From a virus (taxonomy: Duplodnaviria; Caudoviricetes), in the IMG/VR virus record IMGVR_UViG_3300033407_000004, positions 1-64,000 of that record: a stretch of DNA of 64,000 nucleotides; one strand, given 5' to 3'. Under the pieces are notes generated by a model. It was not told the DNA's origin, did no database searches, and saw nothing but the letters and a program-made list of their open reading frames with translations. Made by a program: the position numbers and the translations under genes. This document shows, piece after piece, positions 46,862-52,909 of this stretch (position 1 is its first letter; each line of letters opens with the position of its first letter).

Positions 46862-47434
46862 TTGTGTCCAGGAACGACGTGGATAATCGTATCCCGTGCC
46901 AGGCTCAGGGATCTGGCCGTCATTCCGCATAAGATCGAAAATGCACTCATCAACCAGAGGGCACTTGATGGCTATGTCGATGCTACTGCCATGTGTAAAG
47001 CCTCCGGGAAAGAATTCGGACATTACTACGAAAACAAGACAACAAAGGCTTTTCTTGCCGAGCTTTCTACCGTCATCGGAATTCCGATAACGCAACCTGT
47101 CTATAGAATTCAAGGCGGTAGGGCCGAACTTCAAGGCACTTGGGTTCATCCTGATGTTGCAATCAACCTTGGGCAATGGTGTTCTCCTAAATTTGCGGTT
47201 GCGGTTTCCCAATGGGTTCGTGAATGGATAACTGGAAAGTCAAAAATCGCTATTTTTCTAAATGACGTACAGCGCAAAAAAGCAAAAAAAGAGAATGAGT
47301 ATGGCGTATCAGCAACATTTTTGCCTGGCCACTTTAAGGCTTACACAGTTAAACTAAATCCGCTTGATGGAGTTTATTACTGTGACATCCGGCCCAACAT
47401 GCTTACCGACTCTTTGCTTTCCCACCACAAATGA
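46862..47434 (+). CDS. KilA-N domain protein (start uncertain)
   Basis: 'DGYVDATAMCKA', 'QGTWVHPDVAINLGQWCSPKFA'. Confidence 0.75.
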   Translation: MCPGTTWIIVSRARLRDLAVIPHKIENALINQRALDGYVDATAMCKASGKEFGHYYENKTTKAFLAELSTVIGIPITQPVYRIQGGRAELQGTWVHPDVAINLGQWCSPKFAVAVSQWVREWITGKSKIAIFLNDVQRKKAKKENEYGVSATFLPGHFKAYTVKLNPLDGVYYCDIRPNMLTDSLLSHHK

Positions 47435-47436
47435 GA

Positions 47437-47494
47437 TTCTAACAAGCAGGTCCAGACGGACGCGAACACCGCGCCGCTGACCTGCGCGTTAAAC
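47437..47494 (+). repeat. attC-like site 1 (58 bp)
   Basis: TTCTAAC-AAGCAGGTCCAG..CTGACCTGCGC-GTTAAAC; extra C in L''. Confidence 0.8.
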
Positions 47495-47495
47495 A

Positions 47496-47900
47496 CTACC
47501 AGCGTTCCGAATCATCGAATCTGACAATGAGTTCGGAGGCTAATTTATAAAGCCATTCCATCATTGCCACATGCTGCTTCCAACTGTGTTTCCCGCAAAG
47601 ATGAAGGTATCCGCCTTGCTGCTTTTTATCTCCCTCGCCTTCCTCTTCGCCAAACCATACATGACAACAGCCGTCCCACTTCATATATGCCGTGCAGTAA
47701 AGTTCCGTATCACAGGGCACATTTTCTTCGCCCCATGTAATTACTTCTTCAACCGTAACATTGATGTGCGTCTCGGATTTTTCTGTGATGGTAGCAATAA
47801 ATCCGATGTATCCGTCAGGTCCGACGAAGTGTTTAACCAGGGGATCGACTCTCTCTGGCTTATTCTCGCTCGGCGCTGGTTTTGTTTGTTCTGTGCTCAT
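47496..47900 (-). CDS. Hypothetical cassette gene A
   Basis: GAGGAG RBS and ATG 47900 lie inside attC site 2. Confidence 0.6.
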   Translation of the reverse strand: MSTEQTKPAPSENKPERVDPLVKHFVGPDGYIGFIATITEKSETHINVTVEEVITWGEENVPCDTELYCTAYMKWDGCCHVWFGEEEGEGDKKQQGGYLHLCGKHSWKQHVAMMEWLYKLASELIVRFDDSERW

Positions 47901-47934
47901 CGGTTTCTCCTCGGGGGGCATCCCCGCGTTAGCT
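47831..47934 (+). repeat. attC-like site 2 (104 bp)
   Basis: GTTTAAC-CAGGGGATCG...GCATCCCCGC-GTTAGCT. Confidence 0.7.
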
Positions 47935-48096
47935 CTTAACGTCCTTCTTCTTTCGGCGCGTTTCGGCTGATTTCTGAGCCATATCCCGCGCCTGCTCCGG
48001 TGTCAAAATACGGCGGGATTTGCTCCCGCCTTTGCTCGCCAATTCTTTTGCCGCTTTTTTGAGGCTGATTATGCCTCCGCAATGTGGGCACCTCAT
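47929..48096 (-). CDS. 55-aa basic protein with CxxC and KGG-like motif (cassette B gene 2)
   Basis: Hand-translated MRCPHCGG..SKGGSKSRRILTPEQARDMAQKSAETRRKK; TAATG coupling to upstream gene. Confidence 0.55.
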   Translation of the reverse strand: MRCPHCGGIISLKKAAKELASKGGSKSRRILTPEQARDMAQKSAETRRKKKDVKS

Positions 48097-48434
48097 TACT
48101 CGTCCTCGGCATCACGGGCAGTTTCGCGCTCAAAAATCAGGTCGCGTACCCGCTGCATAGACGATTCCGCGTCACCGTCCCAAAGCTCTGAGGACTCCTC
48201 TGCTGTAATAAGATCGTCCTCGATTGCATCCCGCTCCTCGCCAAGATACTCATAATAATCTGACCACCACTCGATAACTTGATCGGCGTCCTCGTGTCCC
48301 TCTACGTCTACCCGGCTCATCTCCCTGGAGCAATCGCCGTACATTGACGTTTCGCTGCCCGGTGCAAACTCCTGCTCCCACTCCATTACTTTTTCCGCGA
48401 AATCTTGCATCTTTTTTGTCTTATACTCGCTCAT
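48096..48434 (-). CDS. Acidic hypothetical protein (cassette B gene 1)
   Basis: GAGGAGG RBS, own promoter upstream. Confidence 0.6.
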   Translation of the reverse strand: MSEYKTKKMQDFAEKVMEWEQEFAPGSETSMYGDCSREMSRVDVEGHEDADQVIEWWSDYYEYLGEERDAIEDDLITAEESSELWDGDAESSMQRVRDLIFERETARDAEDE

Positions 48435-48487
48435 TGCCGCCTCCTCAAGATGCGGGCCTTTTGTGGTCCCGTCTTACTCTTGAGACA

Positions 48488-48516
48488 ATATTAGCATAAG
48501 CGGTTATGCTTGTCAA
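48488..48516 (-). promoter_or_regulatory. sigma70-type promoter with palindromic operator
   Basis: TTGACA-17 bp-TAATAT; AGCATAA-N4-TTATGCT palindrome fills the spacer. Confidence 0.7.
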
Positions 48517-48550
48517 GGGGTATTTGTAAAATAAATCTAAGTCAACACCG

Positions 48551-48608
48551 AGCTAACAAAACGATCCAGACGGGCGCTAAAATCGCGCCGCTGATCTGGA
48601 CGTTAGCT
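48551..48608 (+). repeat. attC-like site 3 (58 bp)
   Basis: AGCTAAC-AAAACGATCCAGACGGGCGC..GCGCCGCTGATCTGGAC-GTTAGCT. Confidence 0.85.
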
Positions 48609-49439
48609 CCTATAATCGTTCCATCTTACTGTTCTGAATACCTGCTTCGCGTTCACCCACCGGGCGAACCGGCGCTGATACTCGTTCCCCTTGTCCAGTG
48701 CCATAATGTACGGGTCGTATCCCATCGCGTCAATTACCATGACCCTGTGCATATCCTCTTCCGGGGTCGTGTGTCCGATCATCACGTACACCATGACCTT
48801 TGACACTTTCGCGGTTTTCAGGTGGCAGAGGCCGCGCAATACTTCCGCTTCATGCTCGGGGTAATCCCATGCGAAGTGAAGATACCCTTCGCGCTTCAAC
48901 TTCTTCACGGCCTGCGCCTGCTCCTCGCCTACGAGCCGAGCATCAAAGCCGTGTTCGATCACCGTCAACTTTGCGTCGGCGATCTCCGCGAACGTATCGC
49001 GCCAGTTCGGATCGGCAAACGTGTTATTGTTCATCAGCATGATCTTACTGAACCTTGGTTCGTGGAAATCCCAAATCGAATAATGCGTTTCATCGTTCCG
49101 TTGCTTCGGGACAATGCAAAAATCACACGTTCGAGGGCAAGCCTTGTACGTGTAGCCCATCGAATAATCAATCTTCGGATACAACGTATAGTCCGGCCTC
49201 ATCCGGTCCATCTCAGACGGCAATTTGCCCTCGGGATACTTCGGGCCTCCTACGAGATCCGCGACAGGATCAGGCGTACCCTGGAAGAGAACAGAGGCAT
49301 ACGTCAGGTCGGCGCTCGTCCCGGAGAACCACGGAAAATTCAGCGTCGTCTTGTCGCCCAACTTCCGATGATAGGCGCTGATTTTCATGGCCGCGAGGTT
49401 CGGCATTTTGCTATCGGGAGTATAGATATTTACGAGCAT
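48603..49439 (-). CDS. Radical SAM protein (cassette C)
   Basis: CxxxCxxC 'CPRTCDFC'; 'DSKMPNLAAMKISAYH' N-domain; in-frame upstream start at 49481 inside attC4 also possible. Confidence 0.8.
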   Translation of the reverse strand: MLVNIYTPDSKMPNLAAMKISAYHRKLGDKTTLNFPWFSGTSADLTYASVLFQGTPDPVADLVGGPKYPEGKLPSEMDRMRPDYTLYPKIDYSMGYTYKACPRTCDFCIVPKQRNDETHYSIWDFHEPRFSKIMLMNNNTFADPNWRDTFAEIADAKLTVIEHGFDARLVGEEQAQAVKKLKREGYLHFAWDYPEHEAEVLRGLCHLKTAKVSKVMVYVMIGHTTPEEDMHRVMVIDAMGYDPYIMALDKGNEYQRRFARWVNAKQVFRTVRWNDYRS

Positions 49440-49453
49440 AGTTTGTAAACCTG

Positions 49454-49510
49454 GGCTAACCAACGTATCGACGGGTCGCAAGACCCGCGCCCGTCATCCG
49501 GGCGTTATCG
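49454..49510 (+). repeat. attC-like site 4 (57 bp)
   Basis: GGCTAAC-CAACGTATCGACGGG..CCCGTCATCCGGGC-GTTATCG. Confidence 0.8.
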
Positions 49511-49867
49511 TGTCACATAGTTTAGGATTTCCATTTTTAATTTTTTTATCTTTTTATTTGTTAATATATGCTCATTGTGTTCGTCGTTGCAGTCGGCCCA
49601 TTCGAAAAAACAATATCGAGTTATCTTATTCTTATTTTTTATACACTCTTGCAATATCGGAATGCACTGTGGATAAATCTTATATCGTTTTTTTACCATT
49701 TCATATGAAATTGGTACATCTCGCTCGGCAATTTCGTTATTATCCCAACAAACATCATTTATATGATCAAGCTCGCTGCATTTTTCTTGCGCAGCCGCAG
49801 TCGAAATCAAAAAAGCGACGATAACAAAAGCGTCGAGCAAGCGCCTATATTCTTTTTTCTGTTTCAT
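49505..49867 (-). CDS. AT-rich, Cys-containing hypothetical protein with signal-like segment (cassette D)
   Basis: GGAGG RBS and ATG 49867 inside attC5; 'FVIVAFLISTAAAQ'. Confidence 0.55.
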   Translation of the reverse strand: MKQKKEYRRLLDAFVIVAFLISTAAAQEKCSELDHINDVCWDNNEIAERDVPISYEMVKKRYKIYPQCIPILQECIKNKNKITRYCFFEWADCNDEHNEHILTNKKIKKLKMEILNYVTR

Positions 49868-49908
49868 TCGGTCCTCCATTTCCGGCGTTGCTCACGCCTC
49901 CGTTATCT
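49819..49908 (+). repeat. attC-like site 5 (90 bp)
   Basis: CGATAAC-AAAAGCGTCGAGCAAGCGCC...GGCGTTGCTCACGCCTCC-GTTATCT. Confidence 0.8.
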
Positions 49909-50112
49909 AATTAACTGCAAGCGTTCAATGAGTTTCGCGTGATTTTTTACGATACCCATAAACGGCTGAACGATGTAATGCGGCTCTTGACTGCACTTGT
50001 CAGCCGCCGCAAGTAATTCTATACACAACGATTTTAATTCTTCCGTTTCTTGATACTGATTCACAATTTTGGCGCACATTCTCATCTCCTCAACCCCTCC
50101 ACGCGCTCGCAA
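49903..50112 (-). CDS. Hypothetical protein
   Basis: Stop codon coincides with attC5 R' triplet. Confidence 0.45.
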   Translation of the reverse strand: MRARGGVEEMRMCAKIVNQYQETEELKSLCIELLAAADKCSQEPHYIVQPFMGIVKNHAKLIERLQLIR

Positions 50113-52287: not shown

Positions 52288-52743
52288 TTATCTTTTATTC
52301 TTAAAGGCGTCCTTGTCTTTGTCCTTGTCCTTGTCTTTGTCCTTGTCCTTGTCTTTGTCTTTAAGAGTATCGTTGACCACAACTAGACGACTAATTGAGG
52401 ACTCGTTGACCTCATTAAACCTAAGTCTTTGAATAATTGACAAATGCACCCTATTTGCAGGGTTTAAATGTTTGCCGTATTGGAATGCCAGGAAATCCAA
52501 AACGAACCATCTCCCGTTCTTCAGCACCTCTATTCGCGGTTTATCTGCGTTGAATTTCGATAGGGCATTATTGAGGTCAACTTGCACTCTAATTGTGGCC
52601 TCAAATATTCTTTTATTGGGCTTCCAAATTCCGGCATGGTCGCAGTCGTCAAGGATGAAAAACCAGAGAAACTTTTCCCCTGACGATAGATCGATAAACC
52701 AATCTTCTGTCCAGATTTCTGTTGCATGGAATCTCTTTGGCAT
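52288..52743 (-). CDS. Phage replication initiator-like protein (N-terminal wHTH plus DK repeat)
   Basis: 'TEIWTEDWFIDLS..EKFLWFFILDDCDHAG'; (DK)n tract; directly upstream of helicase. Confidence 0.6.
   Translation of the reverse strand: MPKRFHATEIWTEDWFIDLSSGEKFLWFFILDDCDHAGIWKPNKRIFEATIRVQVDLNNALSKFNADKPRIEVLKNGRWFVLDFLAFQYGKHLNPANRVHLSIIQRLRFNEVNESSISRLVVVNDTLKDKDKDKDKDKDKDKDKDAFKNKR
52310..52362. repeat. Hexamer tandem repeat (CYTTGT)n encoding DKDK; adjacent AT-rich tract 52265-52305
   Basis: About 9 units visible; candidate origin iterons. Confidence 0.6.
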
Positions 52744-52764
52744 GATGTCCTATCGAGCCTCAAA

Positions 52765-52864
52765 ACAAAATAACCGATCCATCCAGGAGTTTCCGAACGC
52801 AGTTTGGGGACCGCGTTCCCGCAGCTTTCGCTTTTGGGCATCCTGAATGAATCGGTTATTTTGT
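52765..52864 (-). ncRNA. Candidate structured leader/antisense RNA (24-bp closing stem)
   Basis: Arms 52765-52788 and 52841-52864; two mismatches are G-U pairs on the - strand; internal GAAA tetraloop. Confidence 0.5.
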
Positions 52865-52909
52865 TGAGATAGATTTTTCATAAGAGTCGGAAAACCCTCA
52901 AGCCTGCAC

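Follow-up and report, generated by a model that had tools for sequence, protein, structure and literature searches.

The IMG/VR virus record IMGVR_UViG_3300033407_000004 (Duplodnaviria; Caudoviricetes) is a linear sequence of 76,133 bp with a completeness estimate of 89%, and the window referred to here is its first 64 kb (64,000 nt). Read on the + strand, the region from 47.4 to 49.9 kb contains five imperfect palindromes that start with TAAC and end with GTTA (47440-47491, 47834-47931, 48554-48605, 49457-49507 and 49822-49905; S1 to S5 in array 1), and all credible open reading frames (ORFs) between them are encoded on the minus strand, as are the neighboring phage genes (Table 1). An earlier note on this DNA had described the palindromes as integron attC sites of 58, 104, 58, 57 and 90 nt that bound gene cassettes in inverted orientation. 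We confirmed the five sites and the minus-strand orientation of every ORF between them; the lengths count 3-nt flanks, so that the TAAC...GTTA cores are shorter. A second array of 10 attC-type sites (array 2), whose genes are on the + strand, is located beyond the window at genome 66404-69727. These positions correspond to 6404-9727 of L002, the stretch of the record that covers genome 60-76 kb and lies in part beyond the window end. In the following, a caret marks the crossover point within a box.

Table 1. Features of array 1 and its flanks, in window coordinates. R1 is the covariance model described in the text; its scores on the sites from which it was built are circular.
Feature	Position	Strand	Observation
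KilA-N domain gene (kilA-N)	46862..47434	+	Pfam PF04383, E 2e-22; S1 follows
attC-type site S1, 58 nt	47437..47494	-	R1 62.5 bits on -, 20.7 bits on +; DNA fold z -5.1
Cassette gene c1, 134 aa, no assigned function	47496..47900	-	ATG 47900 behind GAGGAG inside the S2 loop
Long attC-type site S2, 104 nt	47831..47934	-	R1 14.2 bits, E 0.01 within region; bulged G kept
Two-gene cassette: acidic 112-aa ORF (48096-48434) and 55-aa zinc-ribbon/basic ORF (47929-48096)	47929..48434	-	ATGA overlap
Promoter-like site TTGACA-17-TAATAT with TG	48487..48516	-	In the leader of the two-gene cassette; palindrome in spacer
attC-type site S3, 58 nt	48551..48608	-	R1 54.8 bits on -, 5 bits on +
Cassette gene c3, 278 aa, radical-SAM-domain phage family phrog_9298	48603..49439	-	Start ATG 49439, outside S4
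attC-type site S4, 57 nt	49454..49510	-	R1 60.5 bits on -, 6.4 bits on +
Cassette gene c4, 120 aa	49505..49867	-	ATG 49867 behind GGAGG in the S5 loop; no family match
Long attC-type site S5, 90 nt	49819..49908	-	R1 17.1 bits, E 0.0016 within region
Phage backbone ORF	49903..50112	-	TAA^C stop forms the junction with array 1

Aligned in the orientation of the coding strand, the 11 short sites of the two arrays share a consensus composed of a 4-bp R box, a 3x3 spacer, 5 bp, a bulged G, 3 bp, a second bulge and 3 bp. The AAC and GTT triplets are invariant in this alignment and are carried by all 15 sites. The bulged G, at alignment column 49 and 8 nt before GTTA, is invariant as well, and the second bulge is located three pairs further in. 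Compensatory changes were found at 10 of the 15 consensus pairs at a mean column identity of 59%, and the loop varies in length, giving sites of 48 to 98 nt. When S1, S3 and S5 are folded as single-stranded DNA, they surpass shuffled controls by a wide margin, and S4 has a competing fold; in S5, a C and a G are bulged on the 3′ arm. The + strand has the extra bases on its 5′ arm, so that on the coding strand they belong to the 3′ arm. Judged from sequence and predicted folding, the hairpins are attC-type sites of integrons, as they display the boxes, the extrahelical bases and the conservation of structure over sequence that characterize this class.

The sites were searched for by a crude structural scan of the whole record and then with R1, a covariance model of the 11-site alignment run with its filters off. 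Independent evidence from R1 comes from its matches on other records only, namely to the aadA1 attC of R100 and to three sites of TJE1, four of PH101 and three of MW202573. Beyond the training sites in the phage record, R1 detected site G, a long site in array 2 (30.6 bits), as well as S5 and S2 on the expected strand, and uncovered a further array 2 site at L002 7541-7602 (26.4 bits), which contains GGAGG and the ATG of the downstream ORF.

These outside matches indicate which strand is recombined. In the aadA1 attC, whose bulged G has the same spacing, R1 gave a match (31.2 bits, E 7e-6) on the strand that does not encode aadA1 and none on the + strand; its matches to the three attC sites of TJE1 were confined to the non-coding strand. 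The R1 strand also agreed in 4/4 cases with the bottom-strand oligonucleotides of Qi et al., 2023, which had recombined better than the top strands with IntI1 (PMC9892861). In the bottom strand, the cleaved AAC is in R′ and the extrahelical bases are near L′′ (Nivina et al., 2016, PMC5027507). Since R1 marks the bottom strand, the canonical bottom strand and the coding strand coincide in the phage at each of the 15 sites; the bottom-strand geometry is present on the coding strand at 15/15 sites in two oppositely oriented arrays. The earlier note had assigned the + strand of array 1 as the top strand from the asymmetry of the extra bases, an assignment with which the R1 cross-matches, the bulged G, the start codons inside loops and the relatives described below all agree. 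The classical polarity, in which the ORF is on the attC top strand with its attC downstream, is not what we found, as the genes between the 15 sites are all on the bottom strand.

After recombination by an integrase, a cassette has one half of its own R box at either end. We therefore measured the length of complementarity outward from the AAC/GTT core, both across each interval between hairpins and within each hairpin. The opening GTTx box pairs with the closing xAAC box over 8, 6, 8 and 10 nt in array 1 and over 8, 5, 9, 7, 9, 9, 11, 5 and 8 nt in array 2. The mean across the 13 intervals is 7.9 nt (range 5-11), versus 4.3 nt (3-6 nt) within the hairpins, and none of 100,000 permutations reached the observed sum. 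The same rule applies to L104 and L105, two related metagenome contigs. This pairing across intervals is the signature of circular cassettes, and it fits neither an element acting at the RNA level nor a simple repeat.

The hairpins might alternatively be unrelated to integrons, either as RNA-processing sites or terminators or as substrates of another single-stranded DNA recombinase of the REP/RAYT or IS200/IS605 family. Their position on the mRNA strand between genes and the lack of an integrase in the record would suit such elements, and intergenic hairpins with internal loops are known in phage T7 as RNase III sites, a precedent for the RNA version. However, no RNA element predicts that box extensions pair across intervals, and the conserved AAC/GTT boxes, the bulged G at its canonical distance and the cross-matches to R100, TJE1 and PH101 also count against this reading. 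No T-runs follow the hairpins, and no Y1 HUH transposase was found in the record (no PF01797 match). G-T versus A-C mismatches, which can guide the choice of folding strand, were balanced (2 vs 2), with no asymmetry pointing to an RNA-only fold. We consider a non-integron origin of the hairpins very unlikely.

The box rule is predicted by both polarities, so other tests are needed to assign hairpins to genes. The array ends help to fix the polarity for array 2, while the kilA-N end of array 1 is not explained by them. Array 2 begins where a weakly NinB-like gene stops with TAA^C, and its last interval is closed by a 10-nt AAC box (genome 70054-70063), the best match in the genome, behind which there is no hairpin. 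Read on the attC top strand, these ends give the usual picture, with the G^TT of the first cassette at the hairpin-less junction and the last attC adjoining the backbone. No opening partners were found for the closing boxes of the first hairpins, S5 in array 1 and site A in array 2.

The relatives of c3 place the hairpin upstream of its gene. Metagenome homologues are encoded in L104 (96% amino acid identity) and in L105 and L106 (73%), all within arrays of R1 matches on the gene's own strand. Between the phage and L106, homology covers 49507 to 48601; it begins precisely at the TAAC of the upstream hairpin, takes in the hairpin, the leader and the ORF, and ends at the TAAC of the next site, and the flanks differ; the hairpin preceding the gene in L106 is ~96% identical to S4. 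L105 shares the arms of the upstream hairpin and the leader with the phage. In contrast to the shared upstream hairpin, the four hairpin bodies downstream of the c3-type gene diverge from each other straight after TAAC. The shared upstream hairpin and the loss of homology at the downstream TAAC define the unit as C-hairpin-GTTA-leader-ORF-TAA with the crossover at TAA^C.

Start and stop codons point in the same direction. A Shine-Dalgarno sequence and start codon are present in the loop of four sites, S2, S5, L002 7541-7602 and G. These four starts stay intact only if the hairpin travels with the downstream gene, which argues that the hairpin belongs to that gene. As the earlier note had recognized, the two long sites of array 1 hold such signals. 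GAGGAG is located 6 nt before ATG 47900 in the loop of the 104-nt site, and GGAGG 5 nt before ATG 49867 in that of the 90-nt site. The S2 loop thereby holds the ribosome-binding site, the ATG and N-terminal codons of c1, whose first ~22 residues are predicted to be encoded by the site. No in-frame start exists in c1 downstream of S2. Homologues of c1 are conserved only from about residue 27 and have short or different N-termini elsewhere, and the relative P0121 (88% identical) keeps the site-encoded leader including VDPLV. Site G is homologous to S2, and their leader peptides are alike though the downstream proteins are unrelated. The in-loop start codons are probably used, as far as sequence can tell.

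Three N-termini had been proposed to be encoded by attC sites. Those of c1 and c4 are supported by their ATGs in the S2 and S5 loops, but RPVDTLV, read from TTG 49481 for c3, had to be abandoned: the homologues are 274-285 aa long, the 96%-identical one has 278 aa, and the PHROG match begins at residue 23. The homologue lengths and the PHROG match place the c3 start at ATG 49439, 18 nt outside S4.

With respect to stop codons, the ORFs ending at 47929, 48603, 49505 and 49903 do terminate, as had been observed, with a TAA that is the reverse complement of the TTA in GTTA. The 5′ TAA of S2 is the stop of ORF 47929-48096, that of S3 the stop of c3, that of S4 the stop of c4, and that of S5, the first hairpin of array 1 in the coding direction, the stop of the backbone ORF 49903-50112. 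The stop of c1 is a TAG located 5 nt before the TAAC of S1. Over both arrays, 10/15 sites supply the stop of the upstream gene (binomial p about 0.009 vs 1/3). Classical cassettes, too, often end in or next to their attC. The proposal that the site doubles as a start/stop module in reverse of the classical design is retained for its polarity; a stop codon in the AAC box alone is no reversal, and what is reversed is that this box is the crossover box R′.

In the classical polarity, the coding strand would be the top strand and each ORF would be followed by its own hairpin, with the crossover at G^TT; the bulges would be misleading or the integrase unusual. The gene order indeed looks classical, with an ORF, a stop in or near TAAC, a hairpin and the next ORF. 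Exchange at the GTTA end would explain why S2 and G are homologous including their leader peptides while the protein bodies differ, and same-type hairpins precede different genes (S4 and site I; site B and L105:1-53). On the other hand, such cassettes would sever four ORFs from their start codons, and R1 matches validated attC sites in the bottom-strand orientation only. Moreover, across the four contexts of the c3-type gene, the upstream hairpin is shared and no downstream one is, and array 2 ends in a closing box without hairpin, with no opening box before the gene upstream of the first hairpin. Classical polarity appears extremely unlikely for these arrays.

Another explanation keeps the genes native to the phage and lets gene-less hairpin cassettes land at TAA^C gene ends, the inverted look being accidental. 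The radical-SAM-like gene c3 belongs to a common phage family, and the six other viral contigs with homologues of it lack hairpins of this type (no R1 matches). The helicase relatives of the phage likewise gave no R1 matches and lack arrays, and neither set provided synteny information. These contigs without hairpins indicate that the arrays are a recent feature of the lineage, and the c3 cassette gene derives from the phage gene pool. Against native genes, the box extensions pair across 300-900 bp, which places the ORFs inside the recombined unit; the unit of hairpin, leader and ORF lies between different neighbors in L105 and L106; and four sites contain start codons. This explanation, too, is improbable.

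Several observations weigh against integron cassettes of mirror polarity. Besides the circularity of the R1 scores on the 11 phage sites, those of S2 and S5 are weak (14-17 bits), and S2 alone folds poorly (z -1.1). We took S2 as real because of its box extensions of 8 and 10 nt, the homologous long site G and the relative P0121. Upstream of the 96%-identical c3 homologue, L104 carries another hairpin and no more than a remnant of a matching opening box, and in L105 the sequence behind a site-B-type hairpin is unrelated from 12 nt after GTTA; thus, the link between hairpin and gene is not absolute and hairpins are sometimes re-assorted. At the far end of array 1, no box complementary to the S1 GTT box was found near kilA-N. 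The 76-kb record has no match to TIGR02249 or PF00589, i.e., no integron integrase and no tyrosine recombinase. Finally, exact-pattern scans for two site subfamilies in genome contigs found neither a source integron nor a host: the 76 matches were singletons, none within an array, of which six had 3/4 stem pairs in a crude check, and the one inspected (L020) is possibly a real site. The same scan of viral contigs gave chance matches inside coding DNA only.

Taken together, we regard the site structure, the strand polarity, the cassette boundaries and the occurrence of one cassette in other contigs as established, and it is quite probable that these are genuine integron-type cassettes forming a cluster of attC sites lacking an integron integrase (CALIN) in a phage, with a polarity that mirrors the classical one. 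The earlier observation was real and is confirmed in part, and its interpretation as a reversed layout was essentially right. The reversal is supported for the arrays as a whole; the sole gene on the attC top strand, kilA-N, keeps the classical cassette polarity.

In the proposed mechanism, the coding strand would fold as the recombinogenic bottom-strand hairpin, with 5′-xAAC, a short spacer, the stem, the bulged G and second bulge on the 3′ arm, and GTTx-3′. The integrase crossover (AA^C in R′) would then fall just behind the stop codon of the upstream gene, and the mobile unit in the coding direction, C-hairpin-GTTA-leader-ORF-TAA, would carry its hairpin as a 5′ leader to the gene. As a stop codon the cassette could use the conserved TAA within the box, and long sites could carry the ribosome-binding site, the ATG and the first ~15-22 codons of their gene in the loop. 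Both arrays start where a backbone gene ends with its TAA^C stop and are oriented with local phage transcription, by which the mostly promoterless cassettes are presumably expressed. Recombination was probably carried out by an integron integrase supplied by the host, and primary insertion probably occurred at a GTT secondary site, which for array 1 would be the TAA^C stop of ORF 49903-50112. Cassette insertion at non-att GTT sites is the subject of a preprint (bioRxiv 10.1101/2022.09.11.507474). Both arrays adjoin a TAA^C stop with GTTA on the other strand, the arrangement expected after insertion at a secondary site. In comparison with that study, the target here is a phage genome with no integrase at hand, and the parallel is a resemblance only.

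A complete integron comprises intI, an attI site and a promoter for its cassettes (Pc); no intI was detected here with TIGR02249 or PF00589, attI and Pc are not demonstrable in the record, and the hairpin-less junction at genome 70054-70063 cannot be shown to be an attI. The definition of a CALIN requires two or more attC sites on one strand, separated by <4 kb, and no intI in the vicinity (Cury et al., 2016, PMC4889954), and the phage has five such sites within 2.5 kb and 10 within 3.4 kb, with no intI. Classical cassettes such as aadA1 of In2 on R100 (PMC5027507) share with those of the phage the imperfect hairpin, the AAC/GTT boxes, the unpaired spacer and the variable loop, the bulged G 8 nt from GTTA followed by a second bulge, and the retention of structure rather than sequence. 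In both, moreover, the box extensions at the two ends of a cassette are complementary to each other, and the units are compact, contain a single gene and mostly lack a promoter. Unlike classical cassettes, the phage ORF is on the bottom strand with its site upstream, the crossover box R′ carries the preceding stop, and some loops encode a ribosome-binding site, ATG and N-terminal peptide; unlike classical integrons, the phage record has neither intI nor a demonstrable attI or Pc.

Phage CALINs whose sites are recombined by IntI1 have been reported (Qi, Rajabal, Ghaly, Tetu and Gillings, 2023, PMC9892861). They resemble those described here in consisting of attC clusters without integrase and small ORFs including S-adenosylmethionine (SAM)-dependent methyltransferases; by comparison, the 15 sites of our phage are spread over two opposed arrays. 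In that study, the arrays of TJE1 and PH101 were called typical of bacterial arrays, with no mention of reversed polarity or in-site starts (PMC9892861). According to R1, TJE1 (NC_019930 244-1519) has the classical arrangement. PH101 (NC_029094 75919-77987), with four R1 matches and its genes on the minus strand, and MW202573 (2069-3738), with three matches and its genes on the plus strand, have the reversed polarity. This changes how the published phage CALINs are to be read. In PH101, the coding strand is the one that recombined better in the published experiments. A full-text literature search returned no paper that describes cassettes in reversed orientation or start codons within attC; integron cassettes and CALINs are already known, and the mirror polarity appears to be new.

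By definition, an integron cassette is a gene with its attC behind it, and the strand selectivity of recombination is explained as keeping promoterless genes facing Pc. With every gene on the recombined strand and the site as its leader, the same recombination chemistry would support the opposite layout. This layout would suit a phage, because a cassette inserted at the TAA^C end of a gene preserves that stop and brings its own, and it can supply a ribosome-binding site and a start codon as well. The layout is relevant to the question of how cassettes come to be formed, shifts annotated cassette boundaries by one hairpin, and may help host prediction, since the host would need to supply the integron integrase. 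We see about an even chance that phages keep their own pool of mirror-polarity cassettes, exchanged among phages by host integrases and separate in origin from the bacterial pool, in which attC would be a 5′ leader and portable start/stop module and the coding (non-template) strand would be the substrate. If so, the integron programs now in use would assign phage cassette genes to the wrong attC.

The ORFs of the two-gene cassette have no family match, and the very acidic 112-aa protein and the 55-aa protein are possibly a self-regulated pair, of a DNA-mimic or toxin-antitoxin-like kind. Read by eye, the predicted N-terminus of c4, whose charged start is encoded by S5, resembles a signal peptide. 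The kilA-N gene also matches the N-terminal part of the BstA abortive-infection PHROG. The array 2 cassettes encode mostly orphan proteins and one SAM-dependent methyltransferase. The methyltransferase frame (L002 8624-9439, genome 68624-69439) crosses the crossover box as TAT AA^C without a stop and continues through site G, in frame with the ATG of G, to a TGA inside site H, predicting a 271-aa fusion besides the separate 88-aa product. A methyltransferase of MW202573 (Qi et al., supplementary Table S4) is similar by eye and ends where the phage frame meets the AAC box.

S4 (window 49457-49507) and site I of array 2 (genome 69674-69724) have identical cores in inverted orientation 20 kb apart, and recombination on them by an integrase or by homologous recombination would invert the segment between the two arrays. 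Outside the arrays, an inverted repeat at 52764-52865 has 25-nt arms that are 92% complementary and 52 nt apart, and it contains TAACCGAT/ATCGGTTA; as a candidate attC it was rejected, having no unpaired spacer or bulge and no R1 match. In ORF 52288-52743, a short tandem repeat of GTCCTT/GTCTTT units (window 52309-52362) gives rise to a (KD)n run close to the C-terminus.

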